From positions 1-64,000 of IMG/VR virus record IMGVR_UViG_3300029288_004944: a DNA stretch of 64,000 nt. The stretch is one strand, 5' to 3'. A program made the position numbers and the translations under genes. Below are positions 133 to 52,332 of the stretch, piece after piece; position 1 is the stretch's first letter; each line of letters begins with the position of its first letter. Under the pieces are notes generated by a model. That model saw only the letters and a list, made by a program, of their open reading frames with translations. It did no database searches and was not told the origin of the DNA. This DNA comes from a virus (taxonomy: Duplodnaviria > Caudoviricetes).

Positions 133-1791
133 CTAACCAACAGGTACTTCTGCAGGAACAGCAGCAGGAGCCGTTGTTTGTGCAGGCGTTGCAGGTGATG
201 CCTGTGTCGATGGAGTTTCGCCACCTTTCGGAGGCGTTCCTTCGACAGGCTTTCCACTTGTAGATTGTGGAGCATGTGTCATTTCTGCAACTCCACCGGT
301 ACTATTTGTCACTACTTTCTTTGTAGGCTTCGCCAAACGTTCTTTATCGAAAATTGAACCCTGTTCTTCCATCAATCTCTCTTTCTCAATCTCATAGTCA
401 AGTTCTTTAAATTTAGAAAACAATGTTTGCGTTGATAATACTCCATCTTTCCATAACTTATAATAAACATCTTTCTCTTGAGGACTTTGAATAACAAGAT
501 CTTTATACCAAGAAATCTGAGGTATAATCAATTTTGGAGGATCAGATTTGTCATAAAAATTATTTTCTTCCGATATTCTTCTAAAAATATTATTCTCTAC
601 CCATTTCTCAAGTTTATCCCTAAAATTAACATATCTGTTTATCAAAACCTGCAAACTCATTGTAGCCTGATTACTAAATGATGGGCCTTCACCCATCAGA
701 ATATTCTGATTAACTCCCAATCCCACCATAATCCTGGTTTCTATCCAATTGAACTCCGGAATAAGGGGGAGGATTTTACCTATAATCCCCACCGCCTCAT
801 ATTGCACAGCATCGTGCCATATCAAATTAAAACTTGGATCTAACGCAGCCTGCTCCAACTCAGCCCTAAACTCATCCAACTGTTCACCTGTCGGAACAAT
901 ACCCGATGCCACATTTCCGATTTTCCACAACTGTAGGGGGGTAACATGGCGGTCGGCGATGGCCTGTTGGGCAACTCTTAATTTGTCAAAATACATAAGT
1001 TCTTTCATAAGGGGAGTCATAATTGAAGTTCCGCGCACATCCCCAGGTCTTGTAATTCTTGCCATCATTCCAACTTCGTTGGCCGGCAAATCAATCGGCT
1101 GTTCTGACAATATTGCAGCCTTAACATACTCAGGCATATTGTCAAATAATGCCCTATCAGATTCCGAATCAGACTTCGCCATAACTTTCATAGTATCGGT
1201 GATCTTCAAACGAAACTGCAGATCGGCGCCGAGAACGGGGGGTTTACGAACAATAACAGAATCTGAATCTAAAATTGTCCATGAATCCCATATTTTTTCT
1301 TTTGAATTAAATACTCCACATGCTATAAATTCCCCTAATTTCCAATATTGTAATGCGGCCTCACATATAAAAGTATAAAGATCCCATTTTTTTGTAGAAA
1401 GCATTTTTTCAAAAAACTGTTTTACATAATTATCGGAACATACAAGATCAAACTTTGACAAAGGATACTCTGAGTGTAAAGAAATAATAGCATTAACATA
1501 GGGATCATTGTTATAAAAAGTATTACACCAGTTATGAGATTCAATCAATGAACGGGGCAACAACCAATTTGGGGGTGTAAGTGCCGGGTGATACCACGAT
1601 GGATCAGAGGTCGTTACGTCAGCAGAACTATCATCTGCTTGTTTTTCTAAATAGGCATTTTTAATCATCCCACCCGAAGAAAATGTTGATTCAACTCTTC
1701 CATGCAACGGCTTTAAGTTCTGAAAATTATCCAATGCCTTAACCATTCTTTCCTGAAAAATATCAGCCCTTTCTTTATAAATTTCTTCCAT
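133..1791 (-). CDS. Phage portal protein
   Basis: 552 aa near terminase; FYNNDPYVNAIISLHSEYPLSK, RGTSIM and IADRHVTPLQLWKIG segments resemble large-phage portals; low-complexity Pro/Ala/Thr C-tail. Confidence 0.85.
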   Translation of the reverse strand: MEEIYKERADIFQERMVKALDNFQNLKPLHGRVESTFSSGGMIKNAYLEKQADDSSADVTTSDPSWYHPALTPPNWLLPRSLIESHNWCNTFYNNDPYVNAIISLHSEYPLSKFDLVCSDNYVKQFFEKMLSTKKWDLYTFICEAALQYWKLGEFIACGVFNSKEKIWDSWTILDSDSVIVRKPPVLGADLQFRLKITDTMKVMAKSDSESDRALFDNMPEYVKAAILSEQPIDLPANEVGMMARITRPGDVRGTSIMTPLMKELMYFDKLRVAQQAIADRHVTPLQLWKIGNVASGIVPTGEQLDEFRAELEQAALDPSFNLIWHDAVQYEAVGIIGKILPLIPEFNWIETRIMVGLGVNQNILMGEGPSFSNQATMSLQVLINRYVNFRDKLEKWVENNIFRRISEENNFYDKSDPPKLIIPQISWYKDLVIQSPQEKDVYYKLWKDGVLSTQTLFSKFKELDYEIEKERLMEEQGSIFDKERLAKPTKKVVTNSTGGVAEMTHAPQSTSGKPVEGTPPKGGETPSTQASPATPAQTTAPAAVPAEVPVG

Positions 1792-1931
1792 ACAATTTCA
1801 CTCCCTTTACCTAAAAATCATTAAAAATCGTTTAAAGCACAAAAATACCCTAAAAACCGACATTTTTCACTGCATCCAATATCTATTATTTTATACAATA
1901 TTTAATGAAATTACTATACTTATAGTAAGTC

Positions 1932-1998
1932 TATTAAAGAGGTCAACACATCATACCCCTTCATATATAGGGGAATTATAACCATTTTATAACCATTT
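1932..1998 (-). repeat. 67-bp exact direct repeat, copy 1, upstream of portal; candidate phage-specific promoter
   Basis: Identical to 52464-52530; contains the tandem 11-mer TATAACCATTT x2 and a CCCCT-N8-AGGGG inverted repeat. Confidence 0.9.
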
Positions 1999-2179
1999 CA
2001 ATTACAATAAATCATAAAAAAATCGCACAAATCGTATGAAAATAAAAAAAGCCATTAAGTATACCTCACCCCTTTGCACACTACAAGGCGAGATACCTAA
2101 TGGCTACTCTTCGACCTTCCCCCACCCAATTATATCAATCATACTATCAATTCTCTCTAAATCCCCCCATCCACTCTCT

Positions 2180-2539
2180 CTATCCTATCTTTTGAGCACT
2201 CTCAACCTCTTCCTCTTTCTTGATCTGTTCTTGAATTTTTCTAACTTTCTTTTCCGGAACATCACAAGTTTCGATCAAAGCCTTTGCACAAGCAGCCCTA
2301 TTCGCTTCTTTATAATCACTATAACCACCTGTCTTAACTTTCTTTTTTACATCACCATACCACCCATCACTATCCCTGTCAACCTTTTTCCCTGCGATCT
2401 TACTATTAAACATTGAGAACATTTTTTTTAATTTCTTACTCTTACATCTACGACATTCAATATCCGTATCATTCGGACCCATTACCAATATTTCACTTAT
2501 TGTTTGACAATCAAGGCACACATATTCATATATAGGCAT
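2180..2539 (-). CDS. FmdB-family zinc-ribbon protein
   Basis: MPIYEYVCLDC...CRRCKS signature; AAGGAG RBS. Confidence 0.85.
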   Translation of the reverse strand: MPIYEYVCLDCQTISEILVMGPNDTDIECRRCKSKKLKKMFSMFNSKIAGKKVDRDSDGWYGDVKKKVKTGGYSDYKEANRAACAKALIETCDVPEKKVRKIQEQIKKEEEVESAQKIG

Positions 2540-2557
2540 AAGATCTCCTTTCTTTAT

Positions 2558-2601
2558 ATTCAGTCACCATTCAGCCACCATTCGGGCACTATTCGGTCAC
2601 T
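2558..2601. repeat. Four imperfect tandem 11-bp repeats
   Basis: attcagtcacc attcagccacc attcgggcact attcggtcact, filling most of an intergenic gap. Confidence 0.85.
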
Positions 2602-2825
2602 TAAAGATAATTTTCATTAAACTCTTTTTGGTAAGATGGGTGCTGTTTCAAATAATCCTCAAACCTATGCAATGCACCAATAATATCATCAAAACCTGTT
2701 AAATCAACGACAACTTCATCCTCTTCAACTATACTATTCTTGTAATCTATATTATATCTTATAAGTTTCAATTTTTCAATAATCTTATTAATTTCACACA
2801 CAGAATAAACCAATTTTTTCTCCAT
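2601..2825 (-). CDS. Hypothetical protein
   Basis: 74 aa; start overlaps the terminase stop. Confidence 0.7.
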   Translation of the reverse strand: MEKKLVYSVCEINKIIEKLKLIRYNIDYKNSIVEEDEVVVDLTGFDDIIGALHRFEDYLKQHPSYQKEFNENYL

Positions 2826-4483
2826 TATACCCTCAGCCTCGGCCCACGAACTACCGATGGCAAAATTTTATTAGAAAACATTTTATTTTTCATTTCTTTT
2901 TCCTTTATAAAGAAAAAATCACAAGCATATATACTAAGTAAATCAGAGTTCACTATATCATCATGAACATCATCAGGACAATTTATCTGAGCATTTGCAC
3001 TAATACCCTTATATGTTTTTTCCATACACTCAACTTGTATCCTATTCTTATAAAAAATATTCCCACGATCATAACAAGCCATTTTAGGATATTTCAGCCT
3101 ATCATTTTCCGCTTCCCAATTCATATGCTCGCACATTGCATTCTTATAGTTCTTTCCTGTAAAAACATCTGTTGACTGATTACTTATACCAACTATACTA
3201 ATTCCTCTTTTCTTTAAATCATCTATCATTGGTGCGCCATACCCACGATCCCCATATCCGGCCACACATTGAAATACGCCTGTACGCGGATGTATAATTT
3301 TTTCAATTTCATCGATCTGTATGGTTGTATCTCCCTGCCACTCTTTTCCAAATACTTTATGTTTTATTCCATTCGTATATTTTTTAAAAATTGATAAAGA
3401 CGTAAAATCATTGGTATTAACTGAGATATTTTCTGAACTGCCTGCAAAATCTAATCCAAAATAATATTCAAAAGCACCTTTTCCCATGGATATTTCAGGC
3501 GAAAACTCCATATTGAACATTAACTCTTTTGCCTTTGCTGAGAATGCAGGGCTGACATTCTGTATCCATTCAAGCAGATACTGAGTTGCAAAATCCTCAT
3601 CATCCATATCTCCTTCACCCTCCCACATTTCGGGGTTATTGGGAAATATTCTCTTTTTCATATTCAAAGACATTCGATCTATAACAAAATTGGGATATTT
3701 AATGCCATTAATCTCAATATATCCTGAAAGCAATAAGATAGGGCACTGAGTCCAATTATATGATAAAACTTTATACATTGTATTCGTAAAGCTATCATGA
3801 AAATGATTTGTTCCACGTGGAACACCTATCTTAACAAGTTTAGTAAATCCACCCCAAGATAACATAGGTAGAATTCTCTCAGAAAATGCCCAATTTGAAA
3901 TTCTTTGAGCCTCATCAGCAATAATTATACCATGAAAACCTTCAATTTCGGCTGTATCAGAAGCAGACATCGCAATAACATATGATCCATTCTTGAATTG
4001 GATCTTATAGGCACTAACACTTTCTATGTAAGTCTTTAAAAATTCTTTACCCTTATCTCCTGCCCGGGTAAGGATCCTACGCATTTCCATAATGATCCTG
4101 GCCGACTGATCAATCTTTGGTCCAAAAATACCAATAGGCAATAATGGAAACAAGGTTGGGAAAAGCAATAAAGCACAAGCAACAGAGAAGGTCTTTCCTC
4201 CTCCACGACTCTCAATAACAACAATATATGGGATTGCCGGATCAATAATATCTCTGATAGTATCAATTTGATTTTGATACAGATGAATGCCCAATTTATC
4301 CAAAATCATTTTTTCTGTATCTATAGAAGCATCAAATACCGAATCAATATCAGTCTTCAATGCTTCTATAACAGAATTTTTAATGATTTGATTATCTCTA
4401 ATAAAATCGGATACAGATTCAACTTTAACCTTATTAGGATCTACCTGCTCTACATCCACATTATCCATACTGTCACATCCCAT
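2825..4483 (-). CDS. terL: Terminase large subunit
   Basis: Walker A ESRGGGKT, Walker B IIIADEAQ, RNase H-like nuclease FGLDFAG ... HDDIVNSD. Confidence 0.92.
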   Translation of the reverse strand: MGCDSMDNVDVEQVDPNKVKVESVSDFIRDNQIIKNSVIEALKTDIDSVFDASIDTEKMILDKLGIHLYQNQIDTIRDIIDPAIPYIVVIESRGGGKTFSVACALLLFPTLFPLLPIGIFGPKIDQSARIIMEMRRILTRAGDKGKEFLKTYIESVSAYKIQFKNGSYVIAMSASDTAEIEGFHGIIIADEAQRISNWAFSERILPMLSWGGFTKLVKIGVPRGTNHFHDSFTNTMYKVLSYNWTQCPILLLSGYIEINGIKYPNFVIDRMSLNMKKRIFPNNPEMWEGEGDMDDEDFATQYLLEWIQNVSPAFSAKAKELMFNMEFSPEISMGKGAFEYYFGLDFAGSSENISVNTNDFTSLSIFKKYTNGIKHKVFGKEWQGDTTIQIDEIEKIIHPRTGVFQCVAGYGDRGYGAPMIDDLKKRGISIVGISNQSTDVFTGKNYKNAMCEHMNWEAENDRLKYPKMACYDRGNIFYKNRIQVECMEKTYKGISANAQINCPDDVHDDIVNSDLLSIYACDFFFIKEKEMKNKMFSNKILPSVVRGPRLRV

Positions 4484-8608: not shown

Positions 8609-8947
8609 TTAATATCCTTCCGTATGAATCCCATCCCATTTGACAATTACATCGCTCAAACCATCTCCCTGAACAAGCAAATAATCTTTGCAGTTCACGT
8701 GCAATCTACAAAAGATCGGAGCGTTATAAAGCGTTGTATTTATCATATCCGCAAGATCCCAAACATTCCCACTCATGACTTGACATTTTTCACAAGCATC
8801 GGCATAAGCATAAAACGTTGCCGTTGTATACCCAAGTTCCAATAAATTTTTTAAATCATCCAAAGAATGTTCTATATTTGCAGATTCTTTATTTAAATTC
8901 GAACTTTTTGTTAAATCCTTTATTCCCATTAAAAAAGATTTTAGCAT
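8609..8947 (-). CDS. Minimal MuF/SPP1 gp7-like head morphogenesis protein
   Basis: ACEKCQVMSG...APIFCRLHVNCKDYL resembles the MuF CxxC...HxNC motif; start moved to MLKSF after GGAG. Confidence 0.55.
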   Translation of the reverse strand: MLKSFLMGIKDLTKSSNLNKESANIEHSLDDLKNLLELGYTTATFYAYADACEKCQVMSGNVWDLADMINTTLYNAPIFCRLHVNCKDYLLVQGDGLSDVIVKWDGIHTEGY

Positions 8948-9951: not shown

Positions 9952-12819
9952 TTAAGATTCAAGAGCCATCAGTTGCTGTGTAAGATCAGAGATCTCATCA
10001 GCCTTTGCCTGTGCTCCGCTTATCCAACCCCATATCTTTGAAAAAGCACTCTTTATCCAATCAAATATACCTGCATTTTTTAGATAACTATTAACTCTTG
10101 GATATTGAACAATATCTTCTTTTGGTCCGGCTTTTTCAATTTTTGCCATTTCTAATTTTGTCTGCACACCCTTTAACGCACTAATAGTTCTACCCAAAAT
10201 AACAATAGCCTCATCACATTTTCCCTTAAGAGCATCCTCTATTTGCTTCATATCCAATGTTATCTCCGGCTGTTTGCCCAACTCAGGTACATACTTACGA
10301 TATGCAATATTGTTCAGGTCATTAGTAATTTTTACCACAATAGTGCCCGTATCAGAAACCTGACTTCTAAAAGTTTCTGTTATTTCATCTGTGATTTGCT
10401 GTTTTTTCATTACAATATCACTATATCCTTTTGATTTTTTCATTTCTTGAACTTGTTTTTCAGCATCTTCCTTCAATTTATTACCAGCTAAATCCAAAGA
10501 CTTTATTTGACTATCATATTCTGCCAATATTTCTATCCTTTTTGAAATTTCAGGATCAACAGGAGCCTCAACGGATTTTGTTTCTTCTACCCATTCAGGC
10601 CTTTTCTTTAAATCCCTAACACCTACGCTCTGTTTTAATATCGCATCTATCTCATTTGGAGTTAAAGATTTAAGCCATTTATAGAATACACCACCACGAA
10701 TCTCAGACAAACTTACCTTAGCATCTCTATTAATTTCAGAATTTTCAGTACTACCATGCTCTGCAATACCCACAACATCACTAATCTCATTCAAATCATT
10801 CCATTCTTCATCTGTTACATTATTTACCAAAAAAACATTTACAATATTTTCTTCTTTAAAATAATCACCCTGTAAAATCCATTCTATTTTTTCCTTTAAT
10901 TCATCCCCATCAATATCAATCCATATACTATAAAAATTTGTTGGACCTGTAATTAAATCATAATCCCATTCATTTCCCCTCTCAAAACCTATCATATCAG
11001 CATTAGTGGGCTCCTTCTTAGTTTCTATATGTAAAGTATAAGTTGCTTCAGAATCTATATCTGCTATTTTATCAACACCCATTCCTATATGTTTTGCATT
11101 CAATTTAAAAGGTTTTAAGTGTTTTTCCACTATATCAATTGCTTTATCTAAAACTGCATTAAAAACTTTTTCATTTTCTTCAGTAAAATTCAAGTTATTT
11201 CCATTATTTTTTACATCAATATCAAATGTTTTATTATCTTCGTCAACATAAATTTTCAATATCAAACCATTACAATTTTTAGCCACATCTTCTATTGCCT
11301 CATCTATTTTTTTATTAAGAGAATTTATCTCATCCGATACTTTATTCACACTTGATTTCTTTTCAGGAACATCGTATCCCTTTTTTCTTGCCATACTATA
11401 TGCCTGTGCTATTGCCTGATCTTGGGATTTACCTTCTTCTACCAATAATTTAATTTTATTGCTTATCCACGATTGGGCATCATCGCTCATTTTATTTGAT
11501 ACTTTATTCTGTCCTTTTTGACTTTCCTCAAATTTTTCAAGTTCCTTCATGGTATCTCTTATACCTTCCTCTACTTCTTCGATTGTAGCATTATTCTCAG
11601 CAAAAGAACCTACATTAAATACATCCACTTCTCTACCATCTTGAGAATAAACATGAATCATGTGTCCACCAAACCAAGCATACGTCAAATCAGTTTCAGG
11701 ATCATGCTTTACATATTTAGCTCCATCAAGCCATGCTGTAGATTTTTTATTTATCTTTGCCTTAACCCATTCCTTATCCGGCTGATAATAACGCATCATA
11801 TGATCTTCTGTGCACAAAAATCTTCCAAACCTTTCTTCTTGTGCTTCAATAATATATCCTGCTGTTGGATCAAATGTTGCTACTTTGCCAACAGTACCTG
11901 CGGGAATGATCAACCCCGTTGCTGTATCAACTAATTTTGATGTAATTATAATATCCTCTTTATCTTTATATTTTGCTTGTACCTTGGTAGCATTAATTAA
12001 ATCTACCATCCATTGACCTTGTGGTATCTCAGAAAAAGCAACTTTATTTAAAGATGCTTTCTTTTCTACTTCAACATCTTCATTAATTATCTCAACTTTA
12101 TCGGAAAACATTGCATCTGATATGACCTTTTCAGCATTTTCACCATTCGGAGAAAGAATATCAACAACAGAAACTAATTTATCTTGTGAAAATTCATCAA
12201 AAGCAACAACCTTATTCCCGTTGAAAGACACAACAATCCTTCCAACTTCAGGATTATTCTGATTTGCATAAAAATCCACATCATAATCCCTAAAACCCAT
12301 ATGGCCTTCAGCACATTTATGCCAAGTAGATCCATCGGGAATCTCCTGAATTTCAGCCGTAATATCTCTTAATCCCGGCACAATCTCGGAAATTTTTGAC
12401 TTAACATACTCATCGCTAAACAAAATCCCAATTCTTTCTTTATTTTTCACTACTTTATAACTCATCTTTGTTGCCTCCTTAACAGGAAATAAATTAAATA
12501 ATTCATCGGCCTCTTTTGCAGCCTCATCCTTAGTATCATCATCTACCTGCTTATCTATAATACCGGTAATCATTTTCTTTATACTTAAAAACTTATCAAC
12601 CATTGTATTTTTATCATTAAACCCAACACTTGAAAGCCACATAGTGCTACTTTTCCACTTTATTTTAATCTCATAAGGATATTCTCTTTCTGCATTAAAA
12701 GAAGGAGATGATATATTATCAAATGTCGCTATCTCAACTATATCCAATCTATAATCAGGGGATTTAGGATTAATAATCGTAAACTCATTTCTACTTAAAA
12801 TATTATCTTGTGGATTCAT
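9952..12819 (-). CDS. Large modular acidic protein (putative polyprotein/virion protein)
   Basis: Start MNPQD after AGGAG; modules separated by KKASLNKVA, KINKKS, NKVS, KKSSVNKVS, DKIA, LKNA. Confidence 0.8.
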   Translation of the reverse strand: MNPQDNILSRNEFTIINPKSPDYRLDIVEIATFDNISSPSFNAEREYPYEIKIKWKSSTMWLSSVGFNDKNTMVDKFLSIKKMITGIIDKQVDDDTKDEAAKEADELFNLFPVKEATKMSYKVVKNKERIGILFSDEYVKSKISEIVPGLRDITAEIQEIPDGSTWHKCAEGHMGFRDYDVDFYANQNNPEVGRIVVSFNGNKVVAFDEFSQDKLVSVVDILSPNGENAEKVISDAMFSDKVEIINEDVEVEKKASLNKVAFSEIPQGQWMVDLINATKVQAKYKDKEDIIITSKLVDTATGLIIPAGTVGKVATFDPTAGYIIEAQEERFGRFLCTEDHMMRYYQPDKEWVKAKINKKSTAWLDGAKYVKHDPETDLTYAWFGGHMIHVYSQDGREVDVFNVGSFAENNATIEEVEEGIRDTMKELEKFEESQKGQNKVSNKMSDDAQSWISNKIKLLVEEGKSQDQAIAQAYSMARKKGYDVPEKKSSVNKVSDEINSLNKKIDEAIEDVAKNCNGLILKIYVDEDNKTFDIDVKNNGNNLNFTEENEKVFNAVLDKAIDIVEKHLKPFKLNAKHIGMGVDKIADIDSEATYTLHIETKKEPTNADMIGFERGNEWDYDLITGPTNFYSIWIDIDGDELKEKIEWILQGDYFKEENIVNVFLVNNVTDEEWNDLNEISDVVGIAEHGSTENSEINRDAKVSLSEIRGGVFYKWLKSLTPNEIDAILKQSVGVRDLKKRPEWVEETKSVEAPVDPEISKRIEILAEYDSQIKSLDLAGNKLKEDAEKQVQEMKKSKGYSDIVMKKQQITDEITETFRSQVSDTGTIVVKITNDLNNIAYRKYVPELGKQPEITLDMKQIEDALKGKCDEAIVILGRTISALKGVQTKLEMAKIEKAGPKEDIVQYPRVNSYLKNAGIFDWIKSAFSKIWGWISGAQAKADEISDLTQQLMALES

Positions 12820-13753: not shown

Positions 13754-14446
13754 TTACGGATTTACAATTGTGAATATCCAAGCCGACTGATTTGTATCTT
13801 CTGCTGAGACTTTATAATCTATTCCACTAATATTAATCTCTGTGCCCACTCCAAAATTATCAGGGCAAGCATTCTTTTGTTTTTGAAATGATCTTGGAGC
13901 ATTACCCACATCAATACTCATTGTCTCACCCTTATCATCTATTCCAAGTTCAGCAGATTTTTTATTTTCAGACTTTGTAAAAAAATCAGAAGCCTCATTT
14001 ATTGCTTTATCCAAACTATCTTCTGATTCTTCAACCTCAATAGACTTCGATTCTTGAATTTGTTTTTCAAATTCTTCATTATCTATAGAAACAACGCCTT
14101 CGGCGATCTTTACAGTAAAAGAGCCAATCTTTGTCTCTTTGGCATAAACAAATTTAGCAGACACATTTAATTTTCCTGTCGCCAATTCGTTATCTCCAAA
14201 AACAAGTTCGGCTTTTGGCTCACTAAACTTAACGTTCATAACATCTAAAGACTGAAATTTTTTCTGCAATGCAGATTCAAAACTCTCTATTATTTCCTGT
14301 TCTCTACGTTTATTCACAAAATTTTCTGTATCTATAACCATAGATACTCCTTCCTGAGTCTCATGGAGATTTGTTTTATCCAAAATCTCTCTATCTTTAT
14401 CCACATATTCATTCGCACTTCTCTTTACATTCAAATCGTCTTGCAT
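13754..14446 (-). CDS. Hypothetical acidic protein
   Basis: 230 aa, GGAGG RBS; LNVKRSA leader, NKKSA linker. Confidence 0.75.
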   Translation of the reverse strand: MQDDLNVKRSANEYVDKDREILDKTNLHETQEGVSMVIDTENFVNKRREQEIIESFESALQKKFQSLDVMNVKFSEPKAELVFGDNELATGKLNVSAKFVYAKETKIGSFTVKIAEGVVSIDNEEFEKQIQESKSIEVEESEDSLDKAINEASDFFTKSENKKSAELGIDDKGETMSIDVGNAPRSFQKQKNACPDNFGVGTEINISGIDYKVSAEDTNQSAWIFTIVNP

Positions 14447-14502: not shown

Positions 14503-15627
14503 TTAGTCATACGCATTTTCACCCAAAACAAACATTTTTCTTTTATTGTCTATGGTATACTTAACCATATCATCGCCCTCAAGAAACTCTAAACACTCTC
14601 CATATGTTCCTTCAAATAAATCTTTATCAAGATTTTCATCATAAACTTTCCATTCATCGGAAGATTCAATATCACTAAAACTTATACTTGCTATATAATA
14701 CTTATCTCCCTCTTTCCACACAACTTCATCTCCTTGAGGATGACCAATTTGTCTAACAATAAGTCTTTCTTTTTTACTTGTTGGCAATTCACCACCACAA
14801 AGTTCATAAGCCTCTTCTCTTCCAATTTCTACAGCATCACCCCTTACCTGTCTTATTATTGCCTTCTTATCCACAAAAGATTTTAATTTTGTAGATAATG
14901 CAAATGTACCATCATCCTGCTCTTTATATTTCGGATTTGCTTGTTGATATTTTTTAACCAACCTATTAAACTCACTATCAGCATCTATCCATGGACCACC
15001 TTCATCAAAATCACGTGCTATTATATTTGCTTCTTTTTCCATTTCAGTATACACACCAAGATGACCACCCAAAATAAAATTTATAAAATCTTCAGGAGAA
15101 AATTCTTGCATTTTTGTATAAGTATATCTTACAAGATTTTGTGCATCATTATAAAAATCTGAAGGAGAATCAGATTTCTTGTTCAAAGATGCTTTTGGAT
15201 TTGCTTTTTCGAATTCCTCACGTTCTTTTCTCGTGTGTCCCCCACAAACTTTATTTGGATCTCCACCAACAGGGCACTCTTTTATTGGTTTTCCACAATA
15301 TGGACATTTTGTTGCCCTATCCGCTTTTTTACCTATAGTTGCTTCTTTCATTATTGCTTTCACTTTCTCAAAATTCACTTTTGGCAATTTAATTTTATCT
15401 GCCCACGTCTCAAATGTCAAATCAGGGCTTGCAACTTTTTCTTTATTGTACATTTCCAATATCTGTTCGGCCTGAAGTTCGGCAACCCTAACCAACACAT
15501 CTTTGCCATTTTTCTTTTTTAAGTCCCAAAAATCCTGATCAGCAGATTTATCGGCATCTTTCTTTTTCTTGGACGATTCGGGATTCAGTCCGCAAAATTC
15601 TTTTATCTCACCTAAAAAATCTTCCAT
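14503..15627 (-). CDS. Modular acidic protein
   Basis: 374 aa; linkers EKVAS, IGKKA, KASLNKKS, VDKKA; one CPYC zinc module. Confidence 0.8.
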   Translation of the reverse strand: MEDFLGEIKEFCGLNPESSKKKKDADKSADQDFWDLKKKNGKDVLVRVAELQAEQILEMYNKEKVASPDLTFETWADKIKLPKVNFEKVKAIMKEATIGKKADRATKCPYCGKPIKECPVGGDPNKVCGGHTRKEREEFEKANPKASLNKKSDSPSDFYNDAQNLVRYTYTKMQEFSPEDFINFILGGHLGVYTEMEKEANIIARDFDEGGPWIDADSEFNRLVKKYQQANPKYKEQDDGTFALSTKLKSFVDKKAIIRQVRGDAVEIGREEAYELCGGELPTSKKERLIVRQIGHPQGDEVVWKEGDKYYIASISFSDIESSDEWKVYDENLDKDLFEGTYGECLEFLEGDDMVKYTIDNKRKMFVLGENAYD

Positions 15628-19300: not shown

Positions 19301-19557
19301 ACATATTCCTCAACTTCTTTTCTCAGTTCAGAATCTTCTATTTGCCATTGATCTTCTTTACCATTAGAAGTTTGTGTTTTTTTCACATCCCTTAAAATAT
19401 CCGAAATACCCGGATGATCAGCCACAATCCTTCTAACTTCACTACTCTCTATTACATCAGCCAAATCATTATTTATATAATCAGCAATTCTACTAACAAC
19501 AGATACAACATTAATCTTGGCATTTCGCTCTAATTTCTTTATATCTATCTTTGACAT
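16387..19557 (-). CDS. Large modular acidic protein interrupted by an in-frame TAG at 16927-16929 (or two abutting genes)
   Basis: 876-aa ORF ends GDREY-TAG and the same frame continues VAENEESAEGYARE for 179 aa; linkers IESSMKRKA, VESSIKIKA, IESSFNKKVIIRKA, LNIKA, VEKKA, SSSLNKKS. Confidence 0.75.
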
Positions 19558-36339: not shown

Positions 36340-36343
36340 TTTA

Positions 36344-37405: not shown

Positions 37406-37795
37406 CTACTTCTTTTTCTCTTTAAACTTAGGCTCTGTGTTTGTCATTATTGATACAGCCAGGATTAACCCATTAGCCATACCCATAAAATATTCTTCAT
37501 CCAAACAAGCCTGCTCATCTTTACATTGTATATCTCTTACATTGATAAGATCTTTCAAGTTCTCTTCTAATGGTTTCTTTTGATCATATTTACCCATCTT
37601 AACAAGAGCAGATAATTTGGATTGTATTCTTTCTGCTTTCGTTATACTACCATTTACCACACCACTCTTCCCGCCTTTCAGTTCATCACATTCTGTGACA
37701 GACTGACTTTCTTTTAACTTTCTTTCTCCTAAATTAAGAGTAAGCCCATCATCATTCATTGTCATTGCTTTTAATTCACGTGTAAACTTATTCAT
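37406..37795 (-). CDS. Hypothetical protein (MNKF leader)
   Basis: MNKFTRELKAM; C-terminal YFMGMANGLILAVS helix. Confidence 0.75.
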   Translation of the reverse strand: MNKFTRELKAMTMNDDGLTLNLGERKLKESQSVTECDELKGGKSGVVNGSITKAERIQSKLSALVKMGKYDQKKPLEENLKDLINVRDIQCKDEQACLDEEYFMGMANGLILAVSIMTNTEPKFKEKKK

Positions 37796-37836
37796 TTAGA
37801 TCTCCCAAGTTCTTTCTCACTCTCTTTCTTATTGTC

Positions 37837-38082
37837 TTATTTACTCTCTTCATTGTCTTCGGGAAACTCCGGCACACCTGCCCATTCTAACAACTGAACA
37901 TCTCCAGGTTCTATATACTCTGCAAGGCTTTGTAATTCTGCAAGTTCAAGATACGACATACTTTCATTAATTATTTGTTTTCTTAAGTATTCCAATCTTT
38001 CTTTGATGTGTTTCATATCTATTGCTTCTTTATCTATTCCACCACCTGCCAATTTATGTAGTTCTTTTTGAAACTTATTCAT
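37837..38082 (-). CDS. Small acidic protein (MNKF leader)
   Basis: MNKFQKELHKLA; LLEWAGVPE; AGGAGGAG RBS. Confidence 0.75.
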   Translation of the reverse strand: MNKFQKELHKLAGGGIDKEAIDMKHIKERLEYLRKQIINESMSYLELAELQSLAEYIEPGDVQLLEWAGVPEFPEDNEESK

Positions 38083-38472: not shown

Positions 38473-41400
38473 CTATTCCACCCTACCCGCCTCTACCACA
38501 ACTCCCCCATTCATGCTATAAACTTCACCTGTGTCCATATCTTTAATCTCATTTATCATTACCTTAGATCCTGGAATTAACTTTATCTCACTCTCAGGGT
38601 AAGGTATATCAGCATCCCCTGTATTCTTTTGTAATGTTTCTATCCAATCTACATTTTGTTTACTTACTTCACCTTTCACCACTACTTCCGGCCACCCCTC
38701 ATTTGATTCCCCTTTTGCATTCTCATAAACTGTGGCCTGTCCTAAATCCCATGTCCAATACACACCCATAGATGGCCAATCTTCTAATAGGAGTTCATCT
38801 TTAATACTCTTTACAAATTCTTGTACATCCTTTACTGCTAATGCTCTAAATACCGGAAAAGGATCTGTGAACCCTAAAAATCTCTTCTTAGATGCTTCAA
38901 ATGCTTCTATTGCTTCTTCGGGATAGTTCTGATAGAACTCATCCACTTCTCCACCCGGCTGATCATTGATCAGATCTTCTATTGTTATATTCTCCAAGGA
39001 TACAGATGCTTTTCTTTTCAATCCCCTATATTCGCCATACTTCTTTATAAATTCTTCTATACTATAAAACCCATCCTCACTTTGAGCAAAGGTCTCAACC
39101 AAAATCTTACGTGGTTTAAAGTTTATAATTATATCAAACCATTTCCTAAGAGTATCCACATTCTCTACCTCAACACCCATTAAATTATTCTGTTCCATTC
39201 TTACTCTTGTCCATCCTAACAATATTAATGCTTCTATCTTATTATTATACTCAGGTATTGTAATTCCATATTCTTCTTTTAACATCTCTATATTATTAAA
39301 TATCCATTCTTCGTGTTCTCCCGTAGATTCTTCTACTCCAACATTATATATCTTACCCACAGGATCAATCCAGTATGCACCCAAATTTCCTTTTGCTGCT
39401 TCTTTTAATCTCCCCTCTATCTCGAACTTCTCTATTGTCGTATCTTTCTTAGACAACTCTATCTCTTTTATCTGCCACTCTATTTCCGGTTCTTCATCCA
39501 CCAACTCCTCCGTCTCTCTTAGTTTCTTGCCTTTCTTTAAATAGGCTATCGTGATATGCGGAGTGTAATCAAAGTCATCCTTGACTTCAAACTCTTTGGC
39601 GAGATCGGAGTGAAGTTCTTTCAAATCTTGAGACTCTAATTTCAGCACAGCCACATCATATTCTTTACTGTGAGTGAAATAATCTATCTTGGCGATCTTG
39701 GCGATTAATTGGCGATTGGCCACAAGTGATTGAATATCAGATATAGAGGCAGAGTCAATACCATAGCAAAGGGTTGTGTGGGGGGATGGGGGAAATCCTC
39801 CATCCATCTCATTACTTTCTGCATCAGACAGATCTTCTTTTGGAATACTGTTTTGAACTTTCTTTATCCATTGTTTTAACTCTTTTGGTATGTCAGACGT
39901 TTGCACACTACCATGATCGTAATCTGCTCTTATTACTATCCCACCTCTTCTTATCAACACTCCCACTTTCTCGGATGTTAAATGTTCTTCATCTCCTACC
40001 GTTAATTCTAACTCTTCTTTGTTTACTATCCGATCTTTTGAAATTGAATTATCTATCACTATATCCCCACCTATTAAATCAGGGTGTGATTCTATATAAT
40101 GTTTGAATATTAGATCTGCTCTATCGTCTTCTGCCACACCCTCTTCCCCCTCACTACTTTCCCCATATGTTTCCTCTTCCGGATATAACTTATCATACTC
40201 TGCTACCGGCCACATTATCTCTATATCCACAGAATCAGGGCTATTTGAATTCATTGCCCTATATGATTTCTCACCCAACACTGTATAAACGATACCAAGG
40301 TCTGTATCCTCAGCCCTAAGCCCATTTTCCAATATACTCTTTACATTCTCTCTGCTTGTTTGGTGGTGCAGGTCCACACCATTGGGATACTTATTCTTTA
40401 ACATCTCTATGAACTGTCTTTGATACTTTCCCATATCAAGATCATATTTCTCCCCTTTAACCCTACCCCTCATACTCGCACTTATCTTACTCCCATCCTT
40501 ACCTTCTTCTTTTGTGTGATACTTCTGCACTGTGCTATATTGTTTATTCTTTAAATCCTCGGCAAGATCATATATATCACGTATAACATCATATATCTCT
40601 TCTGCTTCTTTATTTTCCTCTTCTCCTGCCTCATCATACGCCCACGATAATATCTGATCAGAACTATGCCATGTTGATATAAGTTCATCCATTGCTTGCA
40701 ATATAGCCATTGGATCAATTGCTGATTTCAATTTCTCTATTTTCTTATTTACTTTATCCCAAAACCTTCCATACTCTTTTTCTTCAAATCTTCTACTTCT
40801 TTCTAACTCTTCAGGCGATACTCCCACTCTCTCCATAAGCGATAATATAATCTCTTTTGACTTCTCTGCTACCTGTGGATCTATTTCTCCCACTATCCCC
40901 TGCCTATATAACTCTTTAATCGTTTCTATATCGGATAGAGATAGCGAAGACAATTTGTCTATTTCGCCTCTCTTATTAACCTTTAACTCTTTCCACTCCC
41001 CTACTTCCCATTGCCCCATCTCTTTCTCAGACTTTATACCCTTCCCCTTTCTTTCCCCACCACCGTTTGTTATCTCCACTCTTAATATACCGTTCTCTGC
41101 CCCGGTCCCCACCACATAATCTTCACTATCATTTAATGTTTCCCCCACTTCCTCCGATAAATAACCCTCATCATCATATTCTGTATATGTATATCCGATT
41201 ACACTCTCCCCCACAGAGGCGGCGATGGAAGGAAATCTATCTGCCATAAACTTATCTACGGCTTCATTGTGAGTAAGACCTTTATACTCCGGCTTTTGAT
41301 ATATTGCTACCCAACATGGTTCCCCCCAATACTCATAGTATATTATCTTATCGCCTGCATTGATTACAATTACCCAATCCTCTGATCGTACCAAATCCCA

Positions 41401-41799
41401 CTGCCCCACACTTACATCTTTCTCAGGGTATGCCTTTTTCTTTTTAGCCATCTCTATATAATTCTTTCTCATTGAATCAGATTCATATTGTTTACTTTCT
41501 TTCTTTATTCCTACACCTATCCCCCCACTATTACTTGCCTCTACCTTTAGCGTAGCAGGCAATAGCCTTACTCCCTTCATACCACCAAACTCTAATAGAT
41601 CGTTTGCAGTAGCCAAACTTATAGCCTTTAACCCAATAGCCATTGTATACTTATTCTCTGCTACCTTGCGAGCCCAAGACAATAGAGATATATTCTTAGT
41701 CCCCCCCAATGTTTTTATGGCCTCAGAAATTAGTTCATTGGTGTCTATATTTAAGTCAGATAAATTTATAACTAAAGTATATCCGGATTGTTTTTTCAT
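38473..41799 (-). CDS. Polyvalent protein with two ART-like domains and a 2H phosphoesterase
   Basis: LHHQTS...SILENGL (H-type ART-like); PHTTL and PHITI (2H); VFRAL...GVYWTW...VDW...ESEI (R-S-E-type ART-like); start probably MKKQS after GGAG, ORF open to 41880. Confidence 0.8.
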   Translation of the reverse strand: MKKQSGYTLVINLSDLNIDTNELISEAIKTLGGTKNISLLSWARKVAENKYTMAIGLKAISLATANDLLEFGGMKGVRLLPATLKVEASNSGGIGVGIKKESKQYESDSMRKNYIEMAKKKKAYPEKDVSVGQWDLVRSEDWVIVINAGDKIIYYEYWGEPCWVAIYQKPEYKGLTHNEAVDKFMADRFPSIAASVGESVIGYTYTEYDDEGYLSEEVGETLNDSEDYVVGTGAENGILRVEITNGGGERKGKGIKSEKEMGQWEVGEWKELKVNKRGEIDKLSSLSLSDIETIKELYRQGIVGEIDPQVAEKSKEIILSLMERVGVSPEELERSRRFEEKEYGRFWDKVNKKIEKLKSAIDPMAILQAMDELISTWHSSDQILSWAYDEAGEEENKEAEEIYDVIRDIYDLAEDLKNKQYSTVQKYHTKEEGKDGSKISASMRGRVKGEKYDLDMGKYQRQFIEMLKNKYPNGVDLHHQTSRENVKSILENGLRAEDTDLGIVYTVLGEKSYRAMNSNSPDSVDIEIMWPVAEYDKLYPEEETYGESSEGEEGVAEDDRADLIFKHYIESHPDLIGGDIVIDNSISKDRIVNKEELELTVGDEEHLTSEKVGVLIRRGGIVIRADYDHGSVQTSDIPKELKQWIKKVQNSIPKEDLSDAESNEMDGGFPPSPHTTLCYGIDSASISDIQSLVANRQLIAKIAKIDYFTHSKEYDVAVLKLESQDLKELHSDLAKEFEVKDDFDYTPHITIAYLKKGKKLRETEELVDEEPEIEWQIKEIELSKKDTTIEKFEIEGRLKEAAKGNLGAYWIDPVGKIYNVGVEESTGEHEEWIFNNIEMLKEEYGITIPEYNNKIEALILLGWTRVRMEQNNLMGVEVENVDTLRKWFDIIINFKPRKILVETFAQSEDGFYSIEEFIKKYGEYRGLKRKASVSLENITIEDLINDQPGGEVDEFYQNYPEEAIEAFEASKKRFLGFTDPFPVFRALAVKDVQEFVKSIKDELLLEDWPSMGVYWTWDLGQATVYENAKGESNEGWPEVVVKGEVSKQNVDWIETLQKNTGDADIPYPESEIKLIPGSKVMINEIKDMDTGEVYSMNGGVVVEAGRVE

Positions 41800-45773: not shown

Positions 45774-45794
45774 TTATTACCCCCTTATTCCTTT

Positions 45795-48606: not shown

Positions 48607-48608
48607 TC

Positions 48609-50081
48609 TTATTTTCTCCACATCCACCAACCACGATGTTCTGTATTACCATCTACATCCAATTGATTTAATTCTCCATTAGTATACCCTTCAATTATCA
48701 TATTTTTAACATGTTCTTTATTGCTATCATCTAATTCTTCATCATAATTTTCATCTCCAGTCCAATTATAATCAATTGACCATCCATTATCTAATATTGT
48801 AGAATGCTCCCACTCCTCTTCTATTTTGTTTTCGATTAAATCTATACCAAGTTCTTTAGATTTCTTTTCCACAGATGCTGTTATTGAATCATTAACAGGA
48901 CCAATTCCCAAATCGGAATTTGATAATCTTTTTTCTGTACCCACACCATCAGCATTATCTTTATATATATCTTTATTCAAAATAGATGATGGTTTTGATT
49001 TTTCCTCATAAGGATTTATTTTTAGAGGTACTATTTCTAATTCTCCAAGATCTGCTTTTGTTTCTTTTGATCCAATCTTCTGCCATGTACCAGCCTCGTA
49101 CTGTTCTGTTGGGGGATTAGGAAATGCATGCTTAACCCAAGCATCAAGTACATCGGGATTTGCAGAATAAAATATATATGGACCTTCTGTTACTGCTCCT
49201 TGTTCATTTTTCCACAATAAAACGTTTGCTTTCATTTTTGTTTTAATCTTTGTTGCTTCTTCTGCTGTAAATGTGGCTCCTTCACCATACCCCACCACAG
49301 ATCCTGCATCATCTTTTACAACTTGATCCTCGATCACGTACGCAATCTTTACCAAACTTATTCCGGCTCCTTCTGCCTGCTTTATTACTCGCTTCTCAGT
49401 AGAAGCATCAATTTTCTCTTTAACAGGTCCAAAAAGGGTTTTAGATGATAATGGAACATCAAATAATTTCTTATTATCACCTGATTGATATTTATCTTTT
49501 GGATTATACGATAAACCAACACTTTCAAACGTATCGGATGGTTTCTTTGCTTCGGCAGGACGATCAACAAATAATTTACTATTTTCGCCCTTACCAACAT
49601 TGTCAGTAATCGATACTTTCTCTATATCTTTTACTGATTTAGCAGATGGTTGAGCAAATAATCCTGAATTTCTACCTGCAGGAACTTCTTTATCTCTTTT
49701 TAATTCAGACTTATCGCCTTTTAACGCCCCATTTGCATCAGCAGACAAACTAACACTCTCCAATTCTTTCGGTTTAACTCCATCAATTTTGTCAATATTT
49801 TTATTGATAGAATCTCCGTCTTTTAATGCCTCAGATCCTTTGTCAGATTTGCTATCACAGGGTTTCTCTTGATAATCTTTTGGCTCTTCTTTTTCCTCGG
49901 CAGCCGTCACAAATTGATTTCTTGCCAATTCAGGATCATCTTCTGGCTTTGGAAGATTAACTTTTGTTTTTACTTTTTCTTTTGGTTCTTCCTTTTTTTT
50001 CGGTGCCTCTTTAGTTACAATTACATCAGATTTCTTATTCATACCTAATAAATCTTTCATATTATCCAAAAACTTTCCCAT
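48609..50081 (-). CDS. Modular charged protein
   Basis: 490 aa; MNKKS leader, VIKQA and ASVEKKS linkers; imperfect ESV(S/G)L...LF repeats. Confidence 0.8.
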   Translation of the reverse strand: MGKFLDNMKDLLGMNKKSDVIVTKEAPKKKEEPKEKVKTKVNLPKPEDDPELARNQFVTAAEEKEEPKDYQEKPCDSKSDKGSEALKDGDSINKNIDKIDGVKPKELESVSLSADANGALKGDKSELKRDKEVPAGRNSGLFAQPSAKSVKDIEKVSITDNVGKGENSKLFVDRPAEAKKPSDTFESVGLSYNPKDKYQSGDNKKLFDVPLSSKTLFGPVKEKIDASTEKRVIKQAEGAGISLVKIAYVIEDQVVKDDAGSVVGYGEGATFTAEEATKIKTKMKANVLLWKNEQGAVTEGPYIFYSANPDVLDAWVKHAFPNPPTEQYEAGTWQKIGSKETKADLGELEIVPLKINPYEEKSKPSSILNKDIYKDNADGVGTEKRLSNSDLGIGPVNDSITASVEKKSKELGIDLIENKIEEEWEHSTILDNGWSIDYNWTGDENYDEELDDSNKEHVKNMIIEGYTNGELNQLDVDGNTEHRGWWMWRK

Positions 50082-50114
50082 TTTACTTCCTCCTATAATA
50101 ATTTTGATTACTTA

Positions 50115-50387
50115 TTATTTCAAATGTGATGGAGTTATTATATTTGACTTTGGTTGCTGTTGAGCAGAAGACAATATACCAAGAACAGCCTGTCCACAAC
50201 CCTGCATCTGTAAATAACTCTCTATTTCATGTAATGCCCTTCTTACATCAACGATCGTGGCTTCTCTTTTAGACTCTTTAAGAACATCCTTTGTGATTAT
50301 AAACGAAGGTTTTCCATCACTCGGCACTACCACTAAAAATGCTGTCTCAGCCTGTTCAATCTCTTTTCCTGTCTTTTCTTCTTCCAT
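50115..50387 (-). CDS. Hypothetical protein
   Basis: 90 aa, GGAGG RBS. Confidence 0.75.
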   Translation of the reverse strand: MEEEKTGKEIEQAETAFLVVVPSDGKPSFIITKDVLKESKREATIVDVRRALHEIESYLQMQGCGQAVLGILSSAQQQPKSNIITPSHLK

Positions 50388-50413
50388 TTTATTCCTCCTA
50401 TCTATTTTTTATT

Positions 50414-50962
50414 TTACCAATCCGTAGCGGAATTTGGTTCGGGATTTTTATCTTCACTTATATCATCCACCTTTCTTATATCCCTCAATTGTTCAAGATT
50501 TTCATAATCATCAGGAGCCGTTGACATACTATCCATTGGCTCATTAATAACATCTTTATCTTGTCCAAAATTCTCTATCTTTCTTACTTCATCTTTATTT
50601 AATATCTGAAGTTTCACGGAACTTTTAGGAAAGTAAACTAATATTTTATTACTACCTAAAAATTCCAATATTTGACCTGTTCCGTTATTACCCTTACCAC
50701 TCACAGCCTCTTCTGTCATTTGCACAGGATCCCCATAGGAAAGAATGTCTCTTTCATCCATGAGATTCTCATTTCGTTCAACAGAAAATTCTGTTTGGGG
50801 CGTAGTTCCGCGATTAGGGCTTAACATACCAAAGGGATCGCCATTACCACGATCTCGATTTATATCATAAACTGATCCGTCAGTCCCCCTCTCATAATAT
50901 TCTTGACCATCATTTGTTAGTGGGCGTTCATCAAATATTGTGTCTGCTGCTTTATTTAACAT
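50414..50962 (-). CDS. Acidic hypothetical protein
   Basis: Start moved to MLNKAA after GGAG, downstream of promoter P4. Confidence 0.75.
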   Translation of the reverse strand: MLNKAADTIFDERPLTNDGQEYYERGTDGSVYDINRDRGNGDPFGMLSPNRGTTPQTEFSVERNENLMDERDILSYGDPVQMTEEAVSGKGNNGTGQILEFLGSNKILVYFPKSSVKLQILNKDEVRKIENFGQDKDVINEPMDSMSTAPDDYENLEQLRDIRKVDDISEDKNPEPNSATDW

Positions 50963-50976
50963 TTTATATACTCCAT

Positions 50977-51005
50977 AGTATAGCACAAATATTGTCATTT
51001 GTCAA
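50977..51005 (-). promoter_or_regulatory. Sigma70-type promoter P4
   Basis: TTGACA-AATGACAATATTTGTGC-TATACT (17-bp spacer). Confidence 0.75.
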
Positions 51006-51012
51006 GCAACAC

Positions 51013-52332
51013 TTAAACATTACCACCCGATGGTTTATCACTTGTCTCTCCTGACATATAAGAAGGTTGTTCTGTCGATTTATTACCCAATGTTGAATAA
51101 TCTTCCATGTTTACATCCTCCCATACTGTATCTACAACTTCGGTAACAGGATTTTTTTCGCCAGGTCCTTGATCTAAATTATCATTCTTTCCCCTATTTA
51201 GCAATTCCTCATTGATTTCTTTTATCTTCTCTACGCTTTCTTTCGTTAAGGTTCCTGCTAAAATCTTCTTTTTTGCTTCAATCAATTCATTATCGCTCAT
51301 TTGTTTTACTTGTTTCTCAAACGACGCTTCTGCTGTTATCGATCCTAAAAGATCCAATGTATACAATTTTTCTCCCGCTTTAACAAGAAACGTATCTTGA
51401 CCATAAAAAGAATGATCTTGCAACGATCTCAATAATCTCACTCTCGATACAATACTCTTTTTAAATTTATCATTGTCAAAGTTTTTAGATGCTATCCAAA
51501 CCCCCGATGAATCTTTCTCAAAAAGAACGTTATCAACAATCACCTGAGGATAATCCATTTTATCAAACATATTCGATACCACTCCGGCATTGATCAATAT
51601 ATGAGATATGTCAGAAGCAGAATCTTTATTATAACCCCTTGCCCTTAGCCCAACTACATACATAAGAGCATCCACATCTGCACTGCCGATCTTTTTCTTT
51701 TCCTTTTGATATGATTTCCAATAGTTTTTTAACTCATCTGCACCCTTACCACTGAAAAAATTATAGAAGTAATTAAACACTTCGCTGTAATCAGCATCTT
51801 TTTCTGCCACAACTAATTTCCCACTTTTTTCTTCAATATTTTCCTGTGGTTGTTCTACTTGTGCTTCATTTTGTGGCTCATTACCTCTTTCCTTGGGAGC
51901 CATTATAGATTGAATATATTCATTCAAAAGATTGTCAAAATTTTGATCTTGACCCGAATAAACATAAAAAAGCCCAAGCACTTTGTCCATCTCGCCTACG
52001 CCGGCGATCATTGCAGAACTTATGAATGAATCAATATTAATACCTGATTCCTGTTCAATTAATGCTTTATTGAATACCCTATTTGACAATGTAGGCGACT
52101 GCCTCACTTGCTCTTCGTATATCCCTTGGCCAGGCATCATCTGATCAGGGCTACCATTTTCAACAGCAGGATTTTGATTATTAATCTCAGAGCCAAAACC
52201 CGTATCGGAATTATCAGCCACAATCTTTTTTAAATTGCCAACAAAGTCGGTGTCCTGCCGTGTAGCCTGTTTCTTTACCCCTTCAATTTTTATTTCACAT
52301 TCTTTTAATAAGCCTTCAAAAAATTTAGACAT
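51013..52332 (-). CDS. Acidic hypothetical protein (possible virion protein)
   Basis: 439 aa; leader MSKFFEGLL...VKKQA; first gene after 67-bp repeat copy 2. Confidence 0.8.
   Translation of the reverse strand: MSKFFEGLLKECEIKIEGVKKQATRQDTDFVGNLKKIVADNSDTGFGSEINNQNPAVENGSPDQMMPGQGIYEEQVRQSPTLSNRVFNKALIEQESGINIDSFISSAMIAGVGEMDKVLGLFYVYSGQDQNFDNLLNEYIQSIMAPKERGNEPQNEAQVEQPQENIEEKSGKLVVAEKDADYSEVFNYFYNFFSGKGADELKNYWKSYQKEKKKIGSADVDALMYVVGLRARGYNKDSASDISHILINAGVVSNMFDKMDYPQVIVDNVLFEKDSSGVWIASKNFDNDKFKKSIVSRVRLLRSLQDHSFYGQDTFLVKAGEKLYTLDLLGSITAEASFEKQVKQMSDNELIEAKKKILAGTLTKESVEKIKEINEELLNRGKNDNLDQGPGEKNPVTEVVDTVWEDVNMEDYSTLGNKSTEQPSYMSGETSDKPSGGNV

Follow-up and report, generated by a model that had tools for sequence, protein, structure and literature searches.

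The sequence analysed here (the window) comprises the first 64 kb of a single viral record of 139,457 bp, IMGVR_UViG_3300029288_004944, whose completeness CheckV puts at 45%. Its subject is a short peptide motif, Lys-x-Ala (K-x-A), which recurs in proteins encoded around the portal and terminase genes of this phage. All real genes of the window lie on the minus strand, to which the window coordinates below refer. The portal protein gene (552 amino acids (aa); 133..1791) matched phrog_16240 (E 1.2e-51), and its product is 33-35% identical to gp14 of Bacillus phage G, the nearest isolate. The large terminase gene (2825..4483) matched phrog_2 (E 5.7e-21) and Terminase_6N, and its product shows 34% identity to phage G gp1. 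Kinship to phage G is nevertheless distant, since common genes number only about 15. The stretch upstream of the terminase gene (about 4.5-52.4 kb) encodes a MuF-like protein, an AAA ATPase, four large proteins of 955, 876, 2246 and 1108 residues, and many orphans. Downstream of the portal gene, phage G and metagenomic relatives carry the protease, decoration and capsid genes; the present record ends 132 bases past the portal gene. The results described below show that several unrelated families of head proteins retain the motif at fixed positions and that it is found at module junctions.

The motif lies ahead of the conserved part of the portal and MuF-like proteins

The N-terminal region of the portal protein (residues 1-52; 1636..1791) lies upstream of the core and is poorly conserved except for the motif, and constitutes a candidate propeptide. 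It ends in a tandem K-N-A / K-Q-A (residues 44-52; 1636..1662), 13 residues ahead of the conserved core, whose invariant part begins at Y67/P69 in the alignment. We compared this protein with 54 metagenomic homologues and analysed 64 metagenomic loci around such portals. A [KR]-x-A was present within the 35 residues before the core in 48 of the 51 homologues that bear the anchor, against 9.6 expected. Many of the relatives' portals read K-[ST]-A-S-L-[ND]-K-x-[AG] where the window portal, at the same place, reads K-N-A-Y-L-E-K-Q-A, and this motif is the sole conserved island of an otherwise variable N-terminal region. The original prediction, which regarded the motif as the end of removable leaders, had proposed to align portal homologues to see where conservation starts; it does begin right after the second K-x-A (E-K-Q-A). 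Several of the homologues (P0029-P0031 and P0045-P0054) are 700-960 residues long and contain intein and homing-endonuclease Pfam domains (PF14890, PF14528, PF13392), which indicates that inteins have entered portals of this clade.

A second setting is provided by a small MuF-like head protein of 112 aa (8609..8947, counted from start 8947, which has a GGAG site), which has 14 homologues in the head modules of relatives. Members of this family consist of a conserved helical leader, then a K-x-A motif, then the domain. In the window protein the leader, delimited by an AlphaFold2 (AF2) model and by the alignment with relatives, spans residues 1-23 (8879..8947); it begins M-L-K-S-F and ends K-E-S-A. 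The sequence L-[NT]-K-E-[AS]-A, or a variant K-x-A (K-I-A, K-V-A), is kept at the end of the leader in most of the 14 relatives. The AF2 model gives residues 1-24, which include a helix at 6-21, a predicted local distance difference test (pLDDT) score below 50; its confident fold begins at about residue 28. The motif at residues 20-23 thus sits at the junction of the low-confidence leader and the confident fold. The assignment of this gene to the MuF family is weakly supported: the window protein gave no direct match to Phage_Mu_F, two of 13 aligned family members matched this Pfam family (PF04233) with E 7e-4, and the fold matches to proteins annotated as minor capsid, head morphogenesis or MuF-like were weak but consistent (E 0.04-1, probability up to 0.99).

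The motif lies between modules of large proteins

The 955-aa protein (9952..12819) was delimited by its ribosome-binding site, and the same 955-aa call is found in the public protein set. The residue numbers used here are those of the 971-residue open reading frame (ORF), which counts from a TTG at 12867. The longest ORFs at this locus (9952-12867) and at that of the 1108-aa protein (38473-41880) start too early; ribosome-binding sites indicate starts at 12819 and 41799, respectively. A HMMER search against 1.84 billion representatives showed that for each of three modules of the 971-residue ORF (377-444, 458-505 and 517-590) there are many matching stand-alone proteins, 50-110 residues long, so that the modules are defined by homology and independently of the motif. 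All K-x-[AS] between residues 350 and 620 (376, 457, 461, 505/506, 511 and 602) are located at junctions, and none is located inside a module. Among these, K-K-S (374-376), K-V-S / K-M-S (455-461) and K-K-S / K-V-S (503-511) flank two modules (11335..11748). In addition, residues 269-277 of the same ORF read K-K-A-S-L-N-K-V-A (12037..12063), an exact match to the portal consensus of the relatives; the pattern K.ASL[ND]K.[AG] occurs only this once in the proteome, where 0.0012 occurrences were expected.

Sites were also found in the other large proteins. The multi-module protein of 2246 aa (27330..34070), which starts with an M-V-D-F leader, contains many internal K-x-A-[SDGNY] sites, among them three K-x-A-S-L and two tandem pairs. 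Two sites, K-T-A↓N (1812-1814) and H-K-A↓D (about 1915), flank its DUF7007 domain (1823-1923); the arrow marks the bond that would be cut. The 1108-aa protein (38473..41799) contains an Acb1-like 2H phosphoesterase module, as judged from matches to 2_5_RNA_ligase2 and Acb1, and has a K-E-A-A (39394..39405) six residues ahead of a module with the sequence Y-W-I-D-P. In this phage and in four relatives a K-x-A precedes the latter module by 5-18 residues, and the upstream sequence is different each time. Finally, a sequence scan of the 876-aa protein (16927..19557), for which family searches gave no match, revealed seven [KR]-x-A-[SDEY] sites. Lys, Ser and Asn abound in the linkers that surround the junction sites.

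The motif occurs at the capsid and protease boundaries of relatives

The capsid protein of the relatives belongs to phrog_2522 and is homologous to phage G gp27. Our comparison covered about 120 capsid homologues, the ones listed among 183 profile matches. Most of these have a leader of 6-20 residues which ends in x-x-A↓[SD] with a constant spacing to the core, and some capsid lineages are leaderless and start where the cut would fall. The protease of the relatives belongs to phrog_18299 (E 5.6e-14) and is homologous to phage G gp19. Its sequence K-K-A↓S-L aligns with K-V-A↓S of gp19, about 15 residues past the predicted end of the fold, which makes this a candidate self-processing site next to the protease domain in both the relatives and phage G. 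In the relatives it is followed by an extension of roughly 800 residues, and a further sequence, L-K-T-A, is conserved near the N-terminus of the protease. At the sequence level the protease profile had no match among PDB chains, and only the fold search succeeded: the best Foldseek match of an AF2 model of the protease domain was T4 gp21 (5jbl, probability 1.0, TM 0.67), followed by the proteases of cytomegalovirus, varicella and herpes simplex viruses. According to this model, the protease of the clade is of the T4 gp21 / herpesvirus assemblin fold. Thus, the capsid propeptide boundary, at which the original prediction had suggested to look for the motif, does carry it in the relatives, and so does the position after the protease domain.

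The pattern K.AS[LVF] occurred 59 times in the head-module loci of the relatives against 10.2 expected (z 15.9, a score inflated, like the others obtained from relatives, by orthologous copies), and K.AS[LVF].K occurred 19 times against 0.9 expected; the reversed patterns were flat. In an unbiased scan of a single locus, L031, K.AS ranked 4th of 922 three-residue patterns. In phage G, K.AS reaches a density of 1.54 per 1000 residues over the first 25 kb, from the terminase to the capsid gene, versus roughly 0.4 elsewhere. Candidate sites of phage G include K-M-A in portal gp14 (residue 58) and K-V-A and K-I-A in protease gp19 (residues 250 and 276), and gp7, a homologue of the large multi-module proteins, contains four K-x-A-S. 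About 18 phage G proteins (NC_023719), many of them encoded between the terminase and capsid genes, begin with a basic leader of 7-9 residues, M-K-R-L-I-K-K, followed by A/S; a literature search turned up no mention of this string.

Taken together, these positions suggest that the head-maturation protease of the phage-G-like clade, a member of the gp19 family, recognises K-x-A (more rarely K-x-S or K-x-G) with S, D, G or N as the next residue, a reading that we consider moderately probable. The same positions might instead be occupied by a motif that is real and conserved and stays uncut, serving as a short docking motif or as a preferred linker end (a Lys-rich helix end and then a small residue) by which modules are joined and leaders are tethered, for instance to the scaffold or portal. 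The evidence for cutting is indeed positional and comparative throughout (register, junctions and low-confidence flanks) and includes no broken bond, and the Lys-, Ser- and Asn-rich linkers described above would suit such a role. However, sites immediately behind the protease domain and at the N-terminus of the capsid protein are in classic self-processing and propeptide positions, the leaderless capsid lineages start at the predicted cut, and the P1 residue is restricted to A, G or S at a fixed register amid variable sequence. We therefore regard an uncut motif as unlikely.

A trypsin-like (Trypsin_2) peptidase with a lipoprotein signal peptide is encoded directly downstream of the portal gene in relatives (L031:11639-12328; L037 and others). 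That this peptidase, cutting after Lys, or else a host protease were the enzyme involved would be in line with the place of its gene and with the frequency of Lys in the motif, and is very improbable all the same: the lipoprotein signal peptide implies that the peptidase is exported, Ala is more conserved than Lys, and Q-F-F, by which leaders of the host Prp/L27 system are marked, is absent from the leaders here.

Loose and strict forms of the motif differ in frequency

All nine strings quoted in the original prediction are present on the minus strand. They correspond to residues 44-52 of the portal protein and to the N-termini encoded at 14446, 16347, 34070, 38082, 50081, 52332, 8947 and 50962. 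The MuF-like example and the M-L-N-K-A-A example depend on the internal starts 8947 and 50962, both of which have a GGAG ribosome-binding site, while the longest-ORF starts do not have one. The example at 34070 does not fit K-x-A because its leader ends V-I-A, with Lys at P4.

The loose form K-x-[AS] is at chance level in the first 25-35 residues of the window's proteins. It was present within the first 25 residues of 17 out of 60 proteins at 0-52.4 kb, compared with 13.6 expected after shuffling (z 1.1), and K-x-A alone in seven, compared with 5.8 expected. Likewise, its density in the whole proteome (0.0106 per residue) equals that expected from composition (0.0105). In its loose form the original prediction is thereby refuted by the standard that it set itself, namely that the motif be equally common in the N-termini of non-virion genes. 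Since the loose motif is no commoner than chance, it is useless by itself for labelling orphan ORFs as virion proteins, and the rule proposed in the original prediction, by which K-x-A/S would mark anonymous ORFs as such, has to be abandoned.

These numbers are compatible with the view that most of the examples listed arose by chance in a Lys-rich and AT-rich proteome, that only the portal and MuF-like sites are conserved, and that M-x-K-F reflects a preference for A/U-rich codons behind the start codon in late genes that are well expressed. The strong GGAGG sites present on all leader genes, which fit high expression, and the lack of homologues of the orphans (see below) agree with it as well. 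The stricter patterns, chosen post hoc after the data had been seen, behave differently. There are 26 occurrences of K-x-A-[SD] in the 16,126 residues encoded at 0-52.4 kb versus 10 in the 26,686 residues encoded elsewhere in the 139-kb record (odds ratio 4.3, Fisher p 3.7e-5). The pattern K.AS[LV] occurs six times at 8-52.4 kb, where 0.5 were expected, and nowhere else. Tandem sites (K.A.{1,7}K.A) number nine against 2.7 expected at 0-52.4 kb, a count matched by 1 of 300 shuffles, and one against 2.7 expected outside this region. N-termini of the form M-x-[KD]-F were found six times against 1.9 expected (p 0.012), all of them within 14.5-52.3 kb, which is a modest and post hoc excess. Enrichment of K-x-A-[SD], of tandem pairs and of M-x-[KD]-F at 0-52.4 kb only, and not in the other 127 genes, which have the same composition, argues against chance. 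So does the large protein encoded upstream of the terminase gene in the relatives, which has similar Phe/Leu-rich leaders ending K-N-A. Chance as the source of most examples is accordingly rather less than likely in our judgement, indeed distinctly unlikely, and K-x-A followed by S or D is a real, stricter form of the motif. The codons used at the motif sites vary, which indicates that selection is at the level of the peptide; an explanation in terms of a DNA word was thereby ruled out.

Orphan proteins carry candidate leaders

Besides the proteins mentioned above, several orphans encoded upstream of the terminase gene begin with candidate leaders. The gene at 13754-14446 is a weak candidate: its 11-residue N-terminus (14414..14446) ends R-S-A and is preceded by a good ribosome-binding site, and no homologues were found in PHROGs, Pfam or the relatives. 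The next gene (14503-15627) has an M-E-D-F leader (15541..15627) which ends in a tandem K-D-A / K-S-A; it had no match in PHROGs or the relatives, and in Pfam only a sub-threshold match to a zinc ribbon (E 0.009). A 15-residue amphipathic leader (16303..16347; hydrophobic moment 0.66) containing K-E-A and K-E-A↓D-D precedes the orphan gene product of 15697-16347. Two small orphan genes at 37406..38082 start with M-N-K-F, and the leader beginning at 38082 ends K-L-A↓G-G-G. Three more orphan genes with leaders are located at 48609..52332, for which neither homologues nor fold leads were obtained: one with an M-G-K-F leader ending K-K-S (50028-50081), one with the leader M-L-N-K-A-A (50945-50962) and one with an M-S-K-F-F leader ending K-Q-A (52264-52332).

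K-x-A ends three of the six M-x-[KD]-F leaders (15627, 38082 and 52332) and K-K-S a fourth (50081); those of 34070 and 37795 have no K-x-[AS] at their end. The helical hydrophobic moment of 11 candidate leaders was 0.56, compared with 0.43 for the other N-termini (Mann-Whitney p 0.004; a post hoc comparison). For the statement of the original prediction that several leaders begin M-x-[KD]-F and continue as an amphipathic helix, counts and moments thus give a modest signal, obtained post hoc. A signal-peptide reading of the leaders was ruled out, as they have no hydrophobic core. No homologue of the leader-bearing orphans was found in phage G or in the 64 related loci. A search among 5.8 billion clusters gave no homologue of the 439-aa orphan, and nothing of use came from the ESM Atlas for either the 439-aa or the 490-aa orphan.

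Candidate mechanism and points that weigh against it

Lys-x-Ala most likely marks protease trimming of the portal protein, the MuF-like head protein and the large multi-module proteins. In the mechanism that we propose, the site would be presented in four settings: as a tandem pair directly ahead of the conserved portal core; at the end of the 23-residue helical leader of the MuF-like head protein; at junctions between small modules of the 955-, 2246-, 1108- and 876-aa proteins; and, probably, at the ends of six to eight short amphipathic M-x-[KD]-F leaders on orphans. By means of the leaders, their proteins would be docked in the prohead during its assembly. The protease would then cut behind Ala, by which leaders are removed and modules are separated, and the cleaved products would either remain in the head or leave it with the ejected DNA. 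We infer cutting of the motif, the position of the scissile bond, head targeting by the leaders and the virion nature of the orphans. The cut is placed after the small residue because Ala is the most conserved position, because the leaderless capsids start about there, and because herpesvirus proteases leave a C-terminal Ala. A reading of the sites as Glu-type (A-x-E) was ruled out, as Glu is not conserved at the aligned positions.

Several observations weigh against this proposal. Profile searches of the 139-kb record, which is 45% complete, did not find protease or capsid genes, and the scaffold gene is not in it either. As the phage's own protease is not in the record, the link between protease and motif is for this phage one of clade homology only. 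Lys is not invariant, P3 being V, T or I in the capsid leaders, and the more distant relatives L057 and L066 show no excess of K.AS, so that the specificity may be limited to part of the clade. Lys-, Ser- and Ala-rich flexible linkers could generate some of the junction sites from composition alone. To these add the post hoc choice of the stricter patterns, the inflation of the z-scores from relatives, and the chance-level frequency of the loose motif at N-termini. The seven orphan examples are assigned by resemblance alone, and that they are leader-bearing virion proteins is possible while falling somewhat short of probable. Finally, no reports of cleavage in any member of the clade were found in the literature searched. 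The idea of removable head-assembly leaders, as put forward in the original prediction, holds up in the comparison with relatives for the portal and MuF-like proteins of this phage and for the capsid and protease of its relatives; it does not hold for the loose rule and stays weak for the orphans.

The same proteins are also carried by a contig of 216,802 bp, which should hold the phage's own protease and capsid gene; this contig was not among the 120 of 183 matches listed in the capsid-profile search. Queries with the portal and terminase found no close relatives in IMG/VR.

Comparison with known processing systems

Systems of this kind, in which a protease motif ends removable leaders on head and cargo proteins, are known. 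What differs here is the specificity after Ala, the clade, and the presence of the motif between modules. In T4, about 10 N-terminal residues common to otherwise unrelated internal proteins (IPI-III, Alt) direct entry into the prohead, and a gp21 site ends this leader (PMC9026906). Portal, capsid, scaffold and protease of T4 are all processed, and packaged enzymes such as Alt are ejected (PMC9026906). The protease of the present clade appears to share the gp21 fold, and the leaders described here would act like the capsid targeting sequence (CTS) of T4. However, T4 cuts after Glu (L/I-x-E), whereas here Ala is fixed; no shared sequence links the leaders to the T4 CTS; and the motif is also found between modules of proteins of 900-2200 residues. 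Conservation of Ala, with no conserved Glu, suggests a specificity variant of the prohead-protease propeptide systems.

In the giant phages SPN3US and phiKZ, whose proteases are gp245 and gp175, respectively, portal, capsid and ejection proteins have N-terminal propeptides that are marked by an A/S/G-x-E motif (PMC10052503). Multiple cuts occur within these propeptides and the protease cuts its own C-terminus, as proven by mass spectrometry (PMC10052503). The similarity with phiKZ, 201phi2-1 and SPN3US is that of giant phages with a short motif at N-terminal propeptides. In the phage studied here the motif is at the boundary of the candidate portal propeptide, as in the 48 homologues mentioned above, and in relatives it is at the capsid boundary. 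Unlike the motif studied here, that of phiKZ, 201phi2-1 and SPN3US ends in Glu; their propeptides are mostly long (111-254 residues), the lineages are unrelated, and the cuts are proven there.

A parallel for the residue at the cut is herpesvirus assemblin (UL26), whose scissile bond is Ala↓Ser within the consensus hydrophobic-x-A↓S. Mature pseudorabies assemblin ends in Ala225 (PMC4498786). The fold is predicted to be the same in both systems, and in herpesviruses the protease is fused to the scaffold and releases itself just past the fold, which may be compared with the K-K-A↓S-L and extension of the relatives' protease. Herpesviruses differ in being animal viruses that have neither N-terminal cargo leaders nor multi-module cargo, and a shared specificity is suggested by analogy. 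A Prp/L27-type leader, as found on the capsid and scaffold proteins of staphylococcal phage 80alpha, mimics the L27 sequence L-N-L-Q-F-F and is removed by a cysteine protease of the host. It resembles the leaders proposed here in being short, N-terminal, removed before Ala/Ser and found in Firmicutes phages; it differs in its L27-mimic signature, as an L-N-L-Q-F-F-like sequence was found in none of the leaders read here.

If the cut is confirmed, gp21-fold prohead proteases would comprise a third specificity class, in which the cut follows Ala, as it does in herpesviruses, instead of Glu, and there would be a sequence rule for head-internal and ejected proteins of phage-G-like megaphages, nearly all of which are known from metagenomes only. 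The prediction is directly testable since phage G has been cultured and mass-spectrometric analyses of its virions exist already. For annotation purposes, caution is required in that comparative support is limited to the portal, the MuF-like and the large multi-module proteins. More tentatively, and with more doubt than confidence, we suggest that a gp21-fold protease with herpesvirus-like Ala↓Ser specificity and short amphipathic leaders form a general cargo system, in which the proteins of 900-2200 residues would be polyproteins that are cut into dozens of modules delivered with the DNA, including anti-defence enzymes such as the Acb1-like phosphoesterase. Should this be true, the ejected proteome of an uncultured clade would be readable from sequence.

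Other features of the region

A protein of 302 aa with a C-terminal zinc ribbon is encoded at 20936-21844. Its homologues, which are 39% identical over the first 120 residues, adjoin the portal in five relatives, indicating a conserved head-module gene with unknown function that is displaced here by 19 kb from the portal gene. Directly upstream of the leader-bearing genes begins an island of glycosyltransferase, sugar-nucleotide enzyme and methyltransferase genes (52530-64000 and on to about 95 kb), in which K-x-A-[SD] is not enriched.

Five paralogous genes (6782-7534, 23628-24584, 26586-27257, 47656-48630 and 62999-63898) share a Cys-rich N-terminal module with the pattern C-x-x-C ... N-D-G-T-L ... 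C-x-x-C-L-S-I ... C-x-C-G-C. They are dispersed in the fashion of homing endonucleases and came out on top in the unbiased pattern scan. A second N-terminal tag, h-I-[DE]-x-h-I-x-R-[WL]-G, is much stronger and is present on more than 20 small and otherwise unrelated proteins. It is often identical across 14 residues and differs from the leaders studied here in that it does not end in K-x-A. Sites with this tag are located at 34376-46217 of the window and in the rest of the record, for example at genome positions 67389-67667 and 131342-131713.

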